Position numbers and translations under genes: made by a program
Assembly (NCBI RefSeq): GCF_003334385.1
Contig: NZ_QOWN01000005.1
From: Escherichia coli
GTDB lineage: Bacteria > Pseudomonadota > Gammaproteobacteria > Enterobacterales > Enterobacteriaceae
Strand: one strand, 5' to 3'
DNA length: 64,000 nucleotides
Notes under the pieces: generated by a model
Told to the model about the DNA's origin: nothing
What the model saw: only the letters and a program-made list of their open reading frames with translations
Database searches by the model: none
Shown here: piece by piece, positions 5,503-60,413 of the stretch
How positions within the stretch are numbered: the stretch's first letter is position 1
Layout of the letters: the number at the start of each line of letters is the position of its first letter

Positions 5503-5533
5503 GAGTTCCTGTCTTAAGCCACTTGCCGAAGTC

Positions 5534-5550
5534 AATTGGTCTTACCAATT
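5534..5550 (-). promoter_or_regulatory. PdhR operator-like palindrome AATTGGT-CTT-ACCAATT just upstream of the pdhR start
   Basis: Perfect inverted repeat read directly in the sequence; matches the PdhR box consensus as I recall it. Confidence 0.5.
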
Positions 5551-5954
5551 TCATGTCTGTGACGCTAAAGTAACAAAGTATTCACCTTATGTCCATACAG
5601 GTTTTGATTGAAATCATGAAACTGTGCACATTTTAACAACTTGACATATATAACGTTTCAAAGTTGTAACTATGCACAAATGTAGACTTTACGTAGGAAA
5701 GGAGTTTTTTAACGATTATTAAACTATAAAAATCCGAATTGAACCGATTCACTTACCAATTTTGTGATTTTTAATTCAATTAAAACGAATTTAAATTCAT
5801 TCTACATATTGAGAGGGGTTGAGGCTGAGCTTTACAAACGGTTTCTTTTTAAGCAACTCATCTTCAACCATGCATAAAGCGGGTGCATTCGCTGCCGCAT
5901 ACCATTATTCTTGATCTGACGGAAGTCTTTTTGTAACAATTCAAACTTCTTTGA

Positions 5955-5972
5955 TGTAAACAAATTAATACA
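5955..5972 (+). promoter_or_regulatory. Candidate TyrR box (TGTAAA-N6-AATACA) in the aroP leader
   Basis: Left half-site is perfect, right half matches 4 of 6; aroP is a known TyrR regulon member. Confidence 0.25.
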
Positions 5973-6042
5973 ACAAACGGAATTGCAAACTTACACACGC
6001 ATCACTGCGTAGATCAAAAAAACAACCACCGCACGAGGTTTC

Positions 6043-10494: not shown

Positions 10495-12285
10495 ATGAAT
10501 ATTCCACAGCTCACTGCCCTGTGTCTGCGTTATCATGGAGTCTTGCTGGATGCCAGCGAAGAGGTGGTTCATGTTGCGGTAGTCGATGCACCTTCGCATG
10601 AGCTACTGGACGCATTGCATTTCGCTACCACCAAACGTATTGAGATCACCTGCTGGACGCGCCAACAAATGGAAGGTCACGCCAGTCGCACACAACAGAC
10701 ATTGCCCGTAGCTGTTCAGGAGAAGCATCAGCCCAAAGCAGAGTTGCTAACTCGAACGTTACAATCTGCGCTGGAACAACGCGCGTCTGATATTCATATC
10801 GAACCAGCGGACAATGCCTACCGCATCCGCTTGCGTATCGACGGCGTATTGCATCCTTTACCGGATGTTTCACCGGATGCCGGAGTCGCATTAACCGCCA
10901 GATTAAAAGTGCTGGGAAACCTGGATATTGCGGAACATCGCCTGCCGCAGGACGGGCAATTCACTGTCGAACTGGCAGGAAACGCCGTCTCATTTCGTAT
11001 TGCGACCTTACCATGTCGGGGTGGTGAAAAGGTGGTATTAAGGTTGTTACAGCAGGTGGGTCAGGCACTGGATGTCAACACGCTTGGAATGCAGCCGTTA
11101 CAACTGGCGGACTTTGCTCATGCCTTGCAACAACCACAGGGACTGGTGCTGGTAACTGGCCCTACCGGCAGCGGCAAAACGGTCACGCTTTATAGTGCCC
11201 TGCAAAAGCTGAATACCGCTGACATTAATATTTGTAGCGTCGAAGATCCAGTTGAGATCCCCATAGCCGGACTAAACCAGACGCAAATCCATCCGCGTGC
11301 CGGACTCACCTTTCAGGGCGTTTTGCGTGCGTTATTGCGCCAGGATCCTGACGTCATCATGATCGGAGAGATCCGCGATGGCGAAACAGCAGAGATCGCT
11401 ATTAAAGCGGCGCAAACTGGTCACCTGGTGTTGTCTACCCTACACACTAATTCCACCTGCGAAACGCTGGTACGTTTACAGCAAATGGGGGTCGCCCGCT
11501 GGATGCTATCATCGGCGCTTACGCTGGTAATAGCCCAGCGTCAGTTGACCGACAAAGTGAAATCAGCGTTACGTTATCCCATCATCATTTTAGCGATGGC
11601 AATCATGGTGGTTGTGGCAATGCTGCATTTTGTTCTGCCGGAGTTTGCCGCTATCTATAAGACCTTCAACACCCCACTACCGGCACTAACGCAGGGGATC
11701 ATGACGCTGGCAGACTTTAGTGGCGAATGGAGCTGGCTGCTGGTGTTGTTCGGCTTTCTGCTGGCGATAGCCAATAAGTTGCTGATGCGCCGACCGACCT
11801 GGCTTATAGTGCGGCAGAAATTGCTGTTACGCATCCCGATTATGGGTTCACTGATGCGGGGACAAAAACTCACGCAGATCTTTACGATTCTGGCGCTGAC
11901 ACAAAGTGCAGGCATTACTTTTTTACAGGGCGTAGAGAGCGTCAGAGAAACAATGCGCTGCCCGTACTGGGTGCAACTTCTGACACAAATCCAGCACGAT
12001 ATCAGTAACGGTCAACCCATCTGGCTGGCGCTAAAAAATACCGGTGAGTTTAGCCCGCTCTGTTTGCAATTAGTGAGAACAGGAGAGGCATCCGGCTCTC
12101 TGGATCTCATGTTAGACAACCTCGCCCATCATCATCGGGAAAACACAATGGCGCTGGCGGATAACCTCGCAGCCTTACTGGAACCGGCGTTGCTGATCAT
12201 AACGGGAGGAATTATTGGTACGCTGGTGGTGGCAATGTATCTGCCAATTTTCCATTTAGGCGATGCGATGAGTGGGATGGGATAA
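10495..12285 (+). CDS. hofB/hofC: Chimeric ORF: GspE/PilB-type secretion ATPase (HofB-like residues ~1-349) fused in frame to the C-terminal ~247 residues of a GspF/PilC-type platform protein (HofC-like); probably a deletion remnant, possibly non-functional
   Basis: Single 596-aa ORF. Walker A LVLVTGPTGSGKT at aa 218-230, Asp box DPDVIMIGEIRD, His box GHLVLSTLHTNS, then ...ALTLVIAQR | QLTDKVKSALRYPIIILAMAIMVVVAML... (junction near nt 11536-11545) continuing as a polytopic membrane protein that ends LLEPALLIITGGIIGTLVVAMYLPIF. No GspE C-terminal tetracysteine domain and no GspF N-terminal cytoplasmic domain. Confidence 0.8.
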   Translation: MNIPQLTALCLRYHGVLLDASEEVVHVAVVDAPSHELLDALHFATTKRIEITCWTRQQMEGHASRTQQTLPVAVQEKHQPKAELLTRTLQSALEQRASDIHIEPADNAYRIRLRIDGVLHPLPDVSPDAGVALTARLKVLGNLDIAEHRLPQDGQFTVELAGNAVSFRIATLPCRGGEKVVLRLLQQVGQALDVNTLGMQPLQLADFAHALQQPQGLVLVTGPTGSGKTVTLYSALQKLNTADINICSVEDPVEIPIAGLNQTQIHPRAGLTFQGVLRALLRQDPDVIMIGEIRDGETAEIAIKAAQTGHLVLSTLHTNSTCETLVRLQQMGVARWMLSSALTLVIAQRQLTDKVKSALRYPIIILAMAIMVVVAMLHFVLPEFAAIYKTFNTPLPALTQGIMTLADFSGEWSWLLVLFGFLLAIANKLLMRRPTWLIVRQKLLLRIPIMGSLMRGQKLTQIFTILALTQSAGITFLQGVESVRETMRCPYWVQLLTQIQHDISNGQPIWLALKNTGEFSPLCLQLVRTGEASGSLDLMLDNLAHHHRENTMALADNLAALLEPALLIITGGIIGTLVVAMYLPIFHLGDAMSGMG

Positions 12286-37774: not shown

Positions 37775-38779
37775 TTAGCTACGGCTGAGCACGCCGCGGC
37801 GATAGAGATTACGTTTAATGCGCGTTAAACCAGGTTTTGGCTTACGCGGTTCGTCCAGGCTTGCCAGGACAATCTCCAGCACACGCTCTGCGACATCGCG
37901 GTGACGTTGAGCCACTGCCAGCACCGGACACTGTAAGAAGTCGAGCAGTTCGTTATCGCCAAAGGTGGCAATTGCCAGGTCAGAAGGCAGTTTGCCGTCG
38001 CGACGCAGCGTGACATCCATCACTCCTTGCAACAACGCAAACGACGTTGTGAACAGCGCCTGCGGCATCGGATGCGTTTCCAGCCATTTTTCGAATAACT
38101 GGGCAGCCGCCTCCCGCTCATAGCTGTTGGCATACAGGAAATGCACTTCGCGCGGATCATCTTTCCAGGCAGTACGGAAACCTTGTTCACGCAGGAAGCT
38201 GACAGAAAGCTCCGGTAGCGCACCAAGATAAAGCACCGTCTCGGCGGGAAACTTACGTAACTCTTCCGCCAGCATTTCGGCATCATCCTGATCGGCACCA
38301 ACCACGCTGGTGAAGTGTTCACGATCGAGGGCGCGGTCCAGCGCGACAATCGGGAACGGGTCGTTAGCCCAGCGTTGATAAAAAGGATGCTCAGGAGGCA
38401 ACGACGTCGAAACAATAATGGCATCAACCTGACGCTGTAAAAGGTGCTCAATGCACCGCATTTCGTTGTCTGGCTGATCTTCTGAGCAGGCAATCAGCAG
38501 TTGATAACCCCGTTGCCGCGCTTGGCGTTCAAGATAGTTAGCGATGCGGGTATAGCTGGTGTTCTCCAGATCGGGGATCACAAGACCAATAGAACGTGTG
38601 CGTCCAGCACGAAGCCCAGCTGCCACGGCGTTCGGGTGGTAATTGTGCTCACGCACCACAGCCATGACTTTTTCAACGGTTTTGTCGCTCACACGGTATT
38701 GCTTCGCTTTGCCGTTAATAACATAGCTTGCAGTGGTCCGCGACACTCCCGCCAGCCGAGCGATTTCATCCAGTTTCAC
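37775..38779 (-). CDS. cra: Catabolite repressor/activator Cra (FruR), LacI family
   Basis: 334-aa reading with GTG start; begins [33 protein letters not shown]. Confidence 0.95.
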
Positions 38780-38958
38780 AATTGCCCCTTGCGTAAAATG
38801 TAAAAACCATAGCCATTGTACTGGTATGGGTTAAATTCATTAACATCTAAGCGCAGAAAATTAACTGCGGCAACTGCTTTTATTCCAGGTTCCCACTGAT
38901 TTCGCAAAAAAAGCCCAACGTGACATGTTGGGCTGTAAATTGCGCATTGAGATCATTC

Positions 38959-39450
38959 TCAACGCATTATTTTATCGCCGCGCGAAAGTCCGACCACACC
39001 AGAGCGAGCAACCTCCACAATTTTCGCCACATCGCGAATCGATGCTAAAAATGCATCAAGCTTACCGCTGGTGCCTGCTAATTGAACGGTATAAAGCGAG
39101 GGTGTGACATCGATAATTTGCCCACGGAATATTTCCGTATTACGTTTCACTTCGTCACGCCCGTAACCGCTGGCCTGAATTTTCACCAGCATGATTTCCC
39201 GCTCAACATGCGCGCCCTGCCCCAACTCACTCACGCGCAAGACATCGACCAGTTTGTGTAATTGCTTTTCGATCTGCTCAAGTACTTTTTCATCGCCCAC
39301 GGTCTGGATGGTCATACGCGATAATGTCGGATCGTCGGTTGGCGCAACGGTCAGGCTTTCAATGTTGTAGCCACGCTGGGAAAAAAGGCCAATCACGCGG
39401 GATAACGCGCCTGATTCATTTTCGAGTAAGACTGATAATATCCGGCGCAT
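38959..39450 (-). CDS. ilvH: Acetolactate synthase III small (regulatory) subunit
   Basis: Track ORF trimmed to [33 protein letters not shown]... (163 aa). Confidence 0.94.
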
Positions 39451-39452
39451 AA

Positions 39453-41177
39453 TCAGGTTCTCTCCGTTTTGCTTAACCACATTTCATCCATTCCGCCCCC
39501 GCGAATCTGCATCGGGTAGACGTGCTCGCTGCCATCGACGGTAACATCAACAAACACCAGGCGATTATTGCGCACCTGTTCCAGCGCCTCGCTAAGTTTG
39601 CTTTCCAGCTCATGCGGATGAGAAATCTGGATCCCGACATGCCCATAGGCTTCCGCCAGACGGACGAAATCGGGTAGCGATTGCATATAAGATTGTGAAT
39701 GACGGCCGGAATAGATCATGTCCTGCCACTGCTTCACCATCCCCAGATAGCGGTTATTGAGATTCACCACCAGTACGGGCAACTCGTATTGCAACGCGGT
39801 AGACAGTTCCTGGATGTTCATCTGAATACTGCCGTCGCCAGTGACGCAAACCACGGTTTCTTCTGGCAACGCCATTTTGACGCCCAGTGCCGCAGGTAAA
39901 CCAAAACCCATCGTGCCGAGGCCACCGGAATTGATCCAGCGACGCGGTTTGTCGAATGGATAATAAAGTGCAGCAAACATCTGGTGCTGCCCGACATCGG
40001 ACGTCACGTAAGCGTCTCCCTTCGTCAACCGCCAAAGAGTCTCGATCACCGCCTGCGGTTTAATCTTTTCACTGTGAGTGTCATATTTCAGGCACTGACG
40101 AGCGCGCCACTGTTCAATTTGCTGCCACCAGTCGCGGATCTCATCCAGTGGTTGATGGGCGGATTCTTGCGACAAGAGTTCAAGCATTTGTTCGAGGACC
40201 TGGCGAGCATCCCCCACAATCGGGATATCCGCAGTCACGGTTTTAGAAATGGAAGTAGGATCAATATCGATATGCAGAACAGTGGCATTTGGGCAGTACT
40301 TTGCCAGATTGTTCGTCGTTCGGTCATCAAATCGTACCCCGACGGCGAAAATCACATCCGCGTTATGCATCGTCATATTGGCTTCGTAGGTACCGTGCAT
40401 TCCCAGCATGCCCAGTGCCTGACGATGCGTTGCCGGAAACGCCCCCAGCCCCATCAATGAGCAAACAACGGGCAGATTCAACGCCTCCACCGTTTCTTTC
40501 AACTGCTGATGGCAGCCCGCCGTGATTGCCCCACCGCCTACGTAGACAACCGGTTTTTTTGCCGCTACCAGCGTTTGCAGAGCACGCTTAATTTGCCCTT
40601 TATGTCCGGTAGTAGTGGGATTGTAAGAACGCATACTGACCGACTCCGGCCAGACATAGGGTAATTTGTTCGCCGGATTAAGAATATCTTTCGGTAAATC
40701 AACGACTACTGGTCCTGGGCGACCACTTGCCGCCAGCCAGAAAGCCTTTTTCAGCACCTGCGGAATGTCTTCCGTTTGCTTAACCAGAAAACTGTGTTTA
40801 ACCACCGGTCGCGAAATCCCCACCATGTCGCACTCCTGAAAGGCATCGTAACCTATCAACGAGGTCGCTACCTGCCCGGAAAGGACAACTAATGGAATGG
40901 AATCCATATAAGCGGTGGCGATGCCAGTAATCGCATTGGTCGCCCCTGGACCCGACGTTACCAGCACGACGCCGACTTCCCCGGTCGCGCGCGCCAGGCC
41001 ATCGGCCATATGCACCGCCGCCTGCTCATGACGAACTAATACATGATCAATACCACCCACGGTATGCAATGCATCATAAATATCAAGGACTGCGCCTCCG
41101 GGATAACCGAATACTTGTTTAACGCCCTGATCGATAAGCGATCGGACGACCATCTCGGCTCCAGACAACATCTCCAT
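39453..41177 (-). CDS. ilvI: Acetolactate synthase III large subunit
   Basis: Track ORF trimmed to [31 protein letters not shown]... (574 aa); ThDP-binding motif GDGS. Confidence 0.95.
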
Positions 41178-41494
41178 GGCCTGCCTCACTGTTTGACGGA
41201 AAAAATGTGTAAAACACATTAACCGTCCGATCTTGCTTAAGCAATTGGCAGCCAGAGACATAAACACGGGGTAATAAGAATAAACAGGAGGAAAGGTGAA
41301 AAGAAACGATAAAATCCTCCATTACAGAGGATTAAATTGATAATAAATCGGCTGAATCCCACAACTTACAGCAATTTCTCTATTTTTTTAATTAATCCTA
41401 AAATAGAGAGCCCACACATTCAGAATAAAATTCTACATTCAATAAAAAATGCAGAATAAACCAGACATTCATGTCTGACCTATTCTGCAATCAG
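41178..41494 (-). promoter_or_regulatory. ilvIH promoter and upstream AT-rich control region (known Lrp-binding region)
   Basis: AT-rich 317-bp spacer upstream of ilvI; individual Lrp sites not resolved by eye. Confidence 0.35.
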
Positions 41495-42439
41495 TTAGCG
41501 TTTGCAAATTGAGACTAATTGCTCTTCCATCCACTGATGGCCTTTATCGCGCCCGGCAGCTTCATGCCAGGAGAGATAACAGGTTCTGCTGTTTTGTTTT
41601 AACGGCAGCGGTAATACCTGTAATTCTAAGGATTCAGCGAACTCTTCAGCCAGCCAACGCGGCGCAATAGCGACCAAATGCGTTTGCGACACCACGCTAA
41701 GTACGCTCATCATTGCCATGCCCTGATACGCGATACTGGCTTGCTTATCTACCGTGTCATACCAAGGTTGACTAAATGACGCGAAACGATCGAGCGAAAC
41801 CGCCGCATGTTGTTCGTTATAAACATCATGTTTCAGTAACGGGCCCTTAATTGTTGGATGATTTTTGCTGGCTACCAGCACCATTTCATCTTTAAATAAT
41901 GGTACGCTGGTAAATTCAGGACGATGGAAGTCTTCATAACTAATCACAAACTCCGTTTCCTGATAACGCAGCTGATGTTCAGTGTTCTGATTTAATGAAG
42001 ACTTGAACATAACATGTATATTTGGCGCAATCTGCTCAATGTGATTATAAATCTGCGAGGTCAGAATGCTGTCTAACGGGCTGCAAACACAAAGATGAAA
42101 TACACGTTCACTGCTCGCGGGTTCAAAACCTGAACCAGGCAATTCATTTTGTACTAGTTGCAATGCCTGACGAACTGAACCAAAAAGTTGAAATGCGCGA
42201 GCAGTCGGTTGAATACCACGGCCATAACGAACAAAAAGCTCGTCATTAAACATCACCTTCAGGCGTGCAACAGCGTTACTGACCGCAGGTTGCGACATTC
42301 CCAGAACATGAGCGGCACGAGTAATGTTTTGCTCCTGCATCACGGCATCGAAAACGGTTAATAAGTTGAGATCGACCATGCGTAGCTGTGGTTTGCTTAA
42401 CTCCGCCGTCTCTGGATGATCTGTTTGTACCTCTGGCAT
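41495..42439 (-). CDS. leuO: LysR-family transcriptional regulator LeuO
   Basis: Track ORF trimmed to [57 protein letters not shown]... (314 aa). Confidence 0.93.
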
Positions 42440-43098
42440 ACTTAACTCCACTGTCACACTTAACTCCCTTTCCCTTATTGGAATGCAGAGAAATAATCCT
42501 GAAGAATATGATTTATCATGCATATAAAATAAGAAAAAGCAAAATGAGTAAAATTCGGAAAACATAAAGATACGGGTTCTGATAAAAACAGAATCCATTG
42601 CCGTGGAATGAGTCATTTACCACAGCATAATAATCCATAATATTTTTGTTGCGAAAACAATCTAATCATAACTACCGCGAATACTCAATCATCTACAAAA
42701 TGGATTAAATGTGCTTATTTAATAATTAATTTATATATTTAATGCATTAATTCTTAACATTAATTGATCAATAATATTCACCAAATCAATATCAAAAAAA
42801 ATCGCAAAACATATAATTCAATACAAATCATCAGGATAGGTTTTGCAACGCGTGCATTTTGTCCCCTTTTTCCTCGTTGATTAGATGCAAAAATTTATGC
42901 TGAAATATGTCAACCGATGAAAAGCGTCGGTAGTTAAGCAGAAATTAATATCGCTTACTTTAACCACCGCAGCACAATTAGCTAATTTTACGGATGCAGA
43001 ACTCACGCTGGCGGGACGTTTTTATTGCGTCAGGGTTGACATCCGTTTTTGTATCCAGTAACTCTAAAAGCATATCGCATTCATCTGGAGCTGATTTA

Positions 43099-43185
43099 AT
43101 GACTCACATCGTTCGCTTTATCGGTCTACTACTACTAAACGCATCTTCTTTGCGCGGTAGACGAGTGAGCGGCATCCAGCATTAA
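43099..43185 (+). CDS. leuL: leu operon leader peptide (28 aa, four consecutive Leu codons)
   Basis: [28 protein letters not shown] read at the 3' end of the 63-aa track ORF; followed by the attenuator hairpin. Confidence 0.9.
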
Positions 43186-43204
43186 GCCAGCACGCAGTCA
43201 AACA

Positions 43205-43235
43205 AAAAACCCGCGCCATTGCGCGGGTTTTTTTA
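43205..43235 (+). terminator. leu attenuator terminator (CCCGCGC catt GCGCGGG followed by T7)
   Basis: GC-rich hairpin with a run of 7 T, located between leuL and leuA. Confidence 0.85.
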
Positions 43236-43277
43236 TGCCCGAAGCGAGGCGCTCTAAAAGAGACAAGGACCCAAACC

Positions 43278-45940
<2,663 letters not shown>

Positions 45941-45942
45941 TC

Positions 45943-47959
<2,017 letters not shown>

Positions 47960-48007
47960 TCCCCTTGCCCGGTCAAATGACCGGGCTTTCCGCTATCGTC
48001 CACGTCA

Positions 48008-59972: not shown

Positions 59973-59978
59973 GTAGCC

Positions 59979-60413
59979 GCATCCGGTATGTAACACCTGA
60001 TGCGACGCTGACGCGTCTTATCTGGCCTACACGCTGCGATTTTGTAGGCCGGATAAGCAAAGCGCATCCGGCATTCAACGCCTGATGCGACGCTGGCGCG
60101 TCTTATCAGGCCTACGCGCTGCGATTTTGTAGGCCGGATAAGCAAAGCGCATCCGGCATTCAACGCCTGATGCGACGCTGGCGCGTCTTATCAGGCCTAC
60201 GCGCTGCGATTTTGTAGGCCGGATAAGCAAAGCGCATCCGGCATTCAACGCCTGATGCGACGCTGGCGCGTCTTATCAGGCCTACGCGCTGCGATTTTGT
60301 AGGCCGGATAAGCAAAGCGCATCCGGCATTCAACGCCTGATGCGACGCTGGCGCGTCTTATCAGGCCTACACGCTGCGATTTTGTAGGCCGGATAAGCAA
60401 AGCGCATCCGGCA
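59979..60413. repeat. Tandem BIME array: five complete 85-bp units (starting at 59979, 60064, 60149, 60234, 60319) plus a partial sixth, each unit holding an inverted REP pair
   Basis: Unit GCATCCGGCATTCAACGCCTGATGCGACGCTGGCGCGTCTTATCAGGCCTACGCGCTGCGATTTTGTAGGCCGGATAAGCAAAGC repeats with an exact 85-bp period; fills the araA-araD spacer. Confidence 0.9.

Follow-up and report, generated by a model that had tools for sequence, protein, structure and literature searches.

The AT-rich leuO-leuL spacer of Escherichia coli: very probably a native divergent control region, with layout, length and composition conserved across the Enterobacteriaceae and bulk sequence turned over

What is the long AT-rich stretch that separates leuO from the leucine operon of Escherichia coli: a control region native to the locus, the remnant of an acquired island, DNA drifting under mutational bias, or the hiding place of a gene that annotation has passed over? 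We addressed this question in a stretch of 64,000 nucleotides, referred to here as the window. The region is already known as a well-studied H-NS-silenced divergent promoter region and holds nothing biologically new. Our own analysis covers where it lies and how it is composed, how far layout, length and AT core are conserved, the conserved promoter blocks, and where published sites fall in it, while silencing by H-NS and StpA, regulator binding and counter-silencing by upstream transcription are taken from the literature. Taken together, we are highly confident that the spacer is the native divergent control region of leuO and leuLABCD, with the leu promoter at one end, the leuO promoters at the other and an AT-rich H-NS silencing platform with anti-silencer sites in between.

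An earlier note on this DNA had described about 660 bp of non-coding sequence between leuO and the leu leader, and this proved accurate: the gap from the leuO start codon to the leuL start codon is exactly window 42440-43098, i.e. 659 bp, and no RefSeq feature lies inside it, either in the window or among the genomes listed. The spacer and its flanks are the following.

42440-43098, no strand assigned: leuO-leuL divergent intergenic spacer, 659 bp, GC 0.328, equivalent to K-12 MG1655 83709-84367
41495-42439, minus strand: leuO coding sequence (LysR-type regulator, 314 aa), RefSeq annotation, GC 0.45
43099-43185, plus strand: leuL leader peptide (28 aa, four consecutive Leu codons), from the list of open reading frames and RefSeq
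43085-43234, plus strand: leu operon attenuator RNA (Rfam Leu_leader RF00512), 145.8 bits, E = 2e-33

RefSeq places leuO, leuL and leuA at these positions as well. The genes run in the order ilvIH, leuO, leuLABCD, with leuO co-directional with ilvIH and divergent from leu, so that a LysR-family gene stands back to back with its own target operon. The leuO ATG (42437-42439) is preceded by a GGAG Shine-Dalgarno sequence, the two lying within 42437-42449. At the other end, the Leu_leader match spans the full length of the model (145.8 bits against a gathering score of 50); it adjoins the spacer, covers its last 14 bases and is separate from the AT-rich part.

Coordinates were referred to K-12 MG1655, and strain PI7 was set aside because it is not collinear with the window. 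The window is the reverse complement of the K-12 sequence, at 99.98% identity over 48.7 kb, and the spacer carries a single mismatch to K-12, at 42642. Elsewhere in the window, at 11529-11542, about 774 bp are missing that are present in K-12 MG1655 (115278-116052, from the hofC 5' end to the hofB 3' end) and in PI7. Since the flanking alignments overlap by 14 bp at the hofB/hofC junction, a microhomology-mediated deletion that fused or truncated hofB and hofC is suggested. The araD/araA intergenic region holds an 85-bp tandem array at 59978-60413 (5.1 copies, 97% matches), in which the window exceeds K-12 by two units (170 bp), the figure for PI7 being about one unit; as copy number differs among the three, the array is a variable-copy repeat.

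How unusual is the composition of the spacer? Its GC content is 0.328, compared with 0.528 over the 64 kb (z = -5.4 relative to every window of 659 bp). The earlier note had called it the most compositionally deviant stretch of the window and had pointed to long A/T runs, and both descriptions hold. The sliding-window GC minimum falls here at 100 bp (42703-42802, GC 0.15), 200 bp (42629-42828, 0.21), 300 bp (42523-42822, 0.25) and 659 bp (42481-43139, 0.326), and the spacer also holds the longest uninterrupted stretch of A and T in the 64 kb (29 bp, 42715-42743). We refer to the 200-bp minimum as the AT core.

42629-42828, no strand assigned: AT core, GC 0.21, including 42703-42802 at GC 0.15 and the 29-bp A/T run at 42715-42743

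Measured against a uniform GC of 0.33, a value of 0.15 over 100 bp has a binomial probability of 4e-5 per window, and it was reached by none of 200 shuffles. The spacer is also the longest intergenic region of the window; the other 26 have a mean GC of 0.442, and some short gaps are equally or more AT-rich, namely leuO/yabR (154 bp, 0.312) and sgrR/sgrS (67 bp, 0.328). The second most AT-rich long stretch is the aroP/pdhR divergent gap, another long divergent regulatory region (5503-6042, GC 0.35 over 540 bp, with a minimum of 0.21 at 5705-5804). Because these three gaps are low in GC as well, part of the deviation of the spacer is a general trait of long regulatory intergenic DNA. AT-rich DNA lies on both sides of leuO (window 41178-41494 and the spacer), with a 16-bp A/T run at 41381-41396 in the leuO/yabR gap. 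Within the gene, GC at four-fold sites is 0.49, compared with 0.71 in leuA, and 0.45 over the whole coding sequence. The entire leuO unit is thus compositionally atypical, yet syntenic across the family.

Of 5426 complete E. coli genomes, 5400 contain a match to the spacer; in 5379 of these at least 80% of it is present in one piece, and in the other 21 less than 80%. In strain FDAARGOS_943 (L002 3288-4161) an IS1A element takes the place of leuO and of spacer positions 1-498, and in PK5074 (hit H13) an IS1 element is inserted within leuO; some natural strains have thus lost leuO or carry a broken copy. Within E. coli, spacer identity is at least 99% in 3074 genomes and 90-95% in 1243, the differences being scattered substitutions, and in the leuO and leuA segments on either side identity is 95% or higher throughout. 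In other Escherichia species spacer identity is 84-90%, which exceeds the identity at leuO four-fold sites (0.60-0.62) in two of three. Escherichia sp. E1V33 and 'E. coli' SCPM-O-B-8794 (L007 and L008) combine identities of 0.60-0.62 at leuO four-fold sites, 0.80-0.81 at those of leuA and 0.84-0.85 in the spacer; divergence as uneven as this within 2 kb may point to recombination or to differing constraints.

Is this layout common to the family? A survey with LeuO as query and one genome per species gave 80 Enterobacteriaceae loci, 79 of them long enough to use. In all 79, leuA is divergent from leuO and there is a leader peptide containing LLL or LLLL, and in close relatives, too, the spacer sits at the same position. 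Its length ranges from 549 to 753 bp (median 633) and its GC from 0.31 to 0.44 (median 0.344), with flanks at 0.50-0.58. Related species, too, have an AT core in mid-spacer, centred at a median distance of 270 bp upstream of the leuO ATG, and in 35 of the 80 spacers it is more clustered than in 95% of the spacer's own shuffles. The sequence itself behaves differently. Against Salmonella, Citrobacter, Enterobacter and Klebsiella, spacer identity is 0.60-0.68, compared with 0.53-0.55 for shuffled controls and 0.47-0.51 for leuA four-fold sites (globally 0.67-0.68 for Salmonella and Citrobacter, shuffled controls 0.55), and most 20-bp bins are less than 0.55 conserved across genera. Across 76 non-Escherichia species, what conservation there is falls mainly in two blocks, one leuO-proximal (42505-42570) and one at the leuL promoter. 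Position, length, AT-richness and both promoter ends are therefore conserved, and the bulk sequence has turned over. The earlier note had spoken of conserved native sequence and not an insert, and had proposed an alignment with Salmonella. The native origin stands, given the 5400 E. coli genomes, the 79 loci and the lack of a tRNA gene nearby; the conserved sequence applies within Escherichia and fails between genera. In Salmonella, layout, length and GC are alike, at an overall identity of about 0.68 and of about 73% in the leuO-proximal half.

Which elements can be placed in the spacer? The promoter blocks and binding sites that we located are listed here.

43034-43077, plus strand: leuLABCD promoter block, at least 90% conserved over 80 sequences
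42505-42570, minus strand: leuO-proximal conserved block (TCTTTATGTTTTCC ... CTTTTTCTTATTTTATATGCATGATAAATCATATT), 0.63-0.81 per 20 bp, the highest cross-genus conservation of the spacer
42774-42792, no strand assigned: candidate LeuO core site ATATTCACCAAATCAATAT, ATATTCA-CCAAA-TCAATAT, containing a T-N11-A LysR box
42731-42750, no strand assigned to the pair: predicted SlyA sites TTAATGCATTAA (42739-42750) and TTAAATATATAA (42731-42742, minus strand), placed here from the sequences and distances in PMC5797941
42972-42986, plus strand: MarA binding site gcacaattagctaat, an exact match to the site in PMC5684230

In the leuLABCD promoter, the -35 hexamer TTGACA occupies 43036-43041 and the -10 and start region CCAGTAACTCTAAAAGCATATCG 43055-43077, the hexamers being assigned from their spacing. 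The -35 hexamer is contained in the 9-mer GGTTGACAT (43034-43042, plus strand). A second, inverted copy of this 9-mer points towards leuO at 42907-42915 (minus strand), with no good -10 at canonical spacing; it could be due to chance or be part of a distal leuO promoter. The block at 42505-42570 is probably the leuO core promoter or the start of the 5' UTR. A simple sigma-70 scan of the spacer returned one weak match, fewer than in shuffles, and missed both the known leuL promoter and the leuO-proximal block.

LeuO site I at leuO has been described as a 7-N5-7 palindrome almost identical to that of the cas promoter (PMC6698644). The candidate at 42774-42792, ATATTCA-N5-TCAATAT, resembles the perfect palindrome ATATTCA-N5-TGAATAT of the casA-cas3 intergenic region, and as a putative core of site I it would fit that description. 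The leuL promoter is about 280 bp away from this candidate, the leuO ATG about 335 bp. In four Escherichia sequences its half-sites are largely kept (one base differing) and the N5 is variable, while the palindrome is absent from the spacers of other genera, Salmonella included; because it is confined to Escherichia, individual sites appear to be lineage-specific. For SlyA, an electrophoretic mobility shift was reported with a 344-bp fragment (primers TC51 and TC52; PMC5797941) that corresponds to window 42440-42783, and for MarA a ChIP-seq peak 'leuL<>leuO' with +++ binding in vitro (PMC5684230, Table 1). With up to two mismatches allowed, the high-affinity H-NS motif of 10 bp, TCGATAAATT, has two matches in the spacer, at 42728 and 42762 (3.0 per kb versus 1.2 elsewhere, a weak enrichment). 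AA/TT helical phasing, a crude proxy for curvature, was not significant, the observed value being reached by 11% of shuffles.

Could the AT-rich stretch, possibly together with leuO, nevertheless have arrived by horizontal transfer, as an insert or the remnant of an island, with H-NS silencing it as foreign? A spacer GC of 0.33 and a leuO GC of 0.45 in a background of 0.53, the gap in four-fold-site GC between leuO (0.49) and leuA (0.71) and the AT-rich DNA flanking leuO on both sides would suit such an origin, and the composition-based predictor GIST does flag leuO as an island (PMC5797941, Table 2). The distribution and layout contradict a recent insert, which we reject on these grounds despite the GIST flag: all 79 usable loci have the leuO/spacer/leuL-leuA arrangement at similar length and GC, 5400 of 5426 E. 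coli genomes carry the spacer, and leuO has been termed 'core genome' (PMC6797219). Scars of repeats or mobile elements were considered and discarded as well, with no tRNA gene in 38000-48000, no integrase or transposase among the neighbours (cra, ilvIH, leuO, leuLABCD) and no bordering direct repeats beyond short chance-level repeats and AT palindromes. The same holds for a plasmid or phage origin, for which no genuine copy was found: the sole matches were PLSDB 'plasmid' records of 0.4-4.9 Mb and chromosomal fragments. In the phage collection, the matches were 'Salmonella phage S.Kent 1-2-1', a record of 1,423 bp, and a Salmonella Infantis contig of 290 kb. These PLSDB and phage-collection records are probably mislabelled chromosomal sequences. 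An insert is hence extremely unlikely, and an acquisition may have predated the divergence of the family, which would make the region native for all practical purposes. We give equally little credence to an unannotated gene in the spacer, whether it encodes a short protein, a LeuO lengthened at its N terminus or a small RNA. Ahead of the annotated ATG, the leuO frame continues for 59 codons without a stop, which would occur by chance in about 1% of cases (a rough estimate for this composition), but most species have only 4-26 open codons in frame there and a good ribosome-binding site (GGAG) precedes the annotated ATG, and the extended protein was discarded for this unconserved extension and this start. 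Open reading frames of 38-41 aa occur at 42764-42880 (plus strand), 42881-43006 (minus) and 42516-42638 (minus), the second free of stop codons in six Escherichia sequences. However, the first is frameshifted in O157 and SCU-122, the third has a stop in SCPM-O-B-8794, and the second has lost its start in E1V33 and SCPM-O-B-8794, its changes being mostly amino-acid replacements; with frameshifts, stops, start loss and replacement-dominated change in close relatives, all three were dismissed. No Rfam model reached its gathering score in the spacer (best 19 bits, a plant microRNA model), RNA families other than Leu_leader being below threshold, outside the AT core or plant microRNA noise, and no RefSeq feature lies under the match among the genomes listed.

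A more serious question is whether the spacer is under selection at all. It might be mostly unconstrained DNA at an AT-biased mutational equilibrium, with H-NS binding passive and not selected. Turnover between genera is almost as fast as at synonymous sites (0.67-0.68 against 0.55 in shuffled controls, leuA four-fold sites at 0.47-0.50), and the low conservation of most 20-bp bins would be in line with drift. A GC of roughly 0.33 is, moreover, about what AT-biased mutation alone is expected to produce in enterobacteria. Drift does not readily account for a length that 79 species keep within 549-753 bp although bacterial genomes are biased towards deletion, nor for an AT core whose GC of 0.15 per 100 bp is far under 0.33 and which recurs mid-spacer in other species. 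It is likewise at odds with the conserved blocks at both promoter ends, with a spacer that within Escherichia is better conserved than the synonymous sites of leuO, and with the several experimentally mapped sites in the spacer (PMC5797941, PMC5684230, PMC6698644, PMC3950696). We regard drift as improbable. We tentatively propose, though we would put it somewhat short of an even chance, that the spacer is kept across the Enterobacteriaceae by selection on its bulk properties (about 630 bp, GC about 0.34, a mid-spacer AT core) and not on its sequence, as a 'compositional' silencer or insulator in which transcription factor sites turn over by lineage.

How would the native control region, our preferred reading, work? 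That this is an H-NS-silenced leuO regulatory region, as the earlier note had it, is well supported by the literature. leuO has no fewer than two promoters, P1 and P2, on which H-NS and StpA act as repressors; BglJ-RcsB switches on P2 through a site located 57 bp upstream of the P2 start, and LeuO regulates its own gene (PMC5025477, PMC3950696). The list of H-NS-bound genes includes leuO in three genome-wide E. coli data sets (PMC5797941, Table 2), and the leuLABCD promoter fragment is bound by LeuO, with binding enhanced by 2-isopropylmalate (PMC12494820). In Salmonella, an H-NS nucleation region has been defined upstream of the leuO promoter, and silencing there is relieved by upstream transcription or supercoiling (PMC6797219, PMC10981669). 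In Vibrio vulnificus, the H-NS footprint upstream of leuO exceeds 160 bp (PMC9728156). By comparison with these systems, the AT core at 42629-42828 is probably the H-NS nucleation and silencer segment of E. coli. At the leuL-proximal end, a strong and highly conserved sigma-70-type promoter would feed the leucine attenuator; at the leuO-proximal end would lie the leuO promoters, and the AT-rich middle of about 200 bp would serve as the platform on which H-NS, with StpA, nucleates and spreads, keeping leuO off under ordinary growth. Silencing would be relieved when LeuO, BglJ-RcsB or SlyA, and reportedly also LrhA, bind in or beside the AT core, or through negative supercoiling or transcription from neighbouring promoters, known in Salmonella as the 'promoter relay'.

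The relay was likewise named in the earlier note. The ilvIH-leuO-leuLABCD order and the divergence that it involves are present here; the relay linking ilvIH, leuO and leuABCD, in which activation passes from one promoter to the next in cis by way of DNA supercoiling, was demonstrated in Salmonella Typhimurium, solely in leu-500 and topA backgrounds (reviewed in PMC4264507, with a related result in PMC10981669). The Salmonella relay region, with its AT-rich H-NS silencer, is known from work of the Wu laboratory (cited by PMC4264507, PMC6797219 and PMC10981669). We infer by analogy that it may operate in E. coli as it does in Salmonella. The two loci are orthologous, with identical gene order, and the spacers of S. 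enterica subspecies (645-655 bp, GC 0.33) come near that of E. coli in length and GC. The Salmonella spacer shares the promoter-proximal blocks, with an alignment of about 73% in its leuO-proximal half; it differs in its overall identity of about 0.68 and in being without the candidate LeuO palindrome of E. coli. In the literature on the locus, control by BglJ-RcsB is described for E. coli only, whereas the experiments on the relay and on a 'cis-spreading filament' were done in Salmonella.

How does the spacer compare with other silenced or divergent promoters? The bgl, proU and cas (casA-cas3) promoters also lie in AT-rich regulatory DNA (casA-cas3 gap 414 bp, GC 0.295) and, as at leuO, are silenced by H-NS and StpA and relieved by LeuO, BglJ-RcsB or SlyA (PMC3950696, PMC5797941, PMC6698644); casA-cas3 shares the type of LeuO palindrome with the candidate site in the spacer. 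Unlike them, leuO is a silenced gene that encodes an anti-silencer, at a locus that is core-genome and syntenic across the family and not accessory. Because the silenced gene encodes the anti-silencer itself, leuO has feedback loops (PMC5025477). The spacer also resembles classical LysR-type divergent promoters, in the divergent regulator and operon, the palindrome of T-N11-A type (a candidate here), the autoregulated regulator and an effector, 2-isopropylmalate, that is an intermediate of the pathway (PMC12494820). It departs from such pairs in its length of about 660 bp and in a control dominated by H-NS silencing and the leucine attenuator. The region upstream of leuO in Vibrio vulnificus is AT-rich, too, and its H-NS footprint overlaps the LeuO autoregulatory sites, with ToxR as the activator instead (PMC9728156).

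Gaps between LysR-type regulators and their operons are usually roughly 100-200 bp. The leuO-leuL spacer is a textbook case of H-NS silencing in the core genome combined with neighbouring promoters coupled by supercoiling. Selection on bulk properties, if true, would be a modest evolutionary point about a known element and not a new kind of element. As a native, family-wide regulatory region that composition-based predictors flag as foreign (GIST, PMC5797941), it can serve for calibration, and its layout, length and AT-richness, conserved without conserved sequence, help to separate native silencer regions from true inserts.
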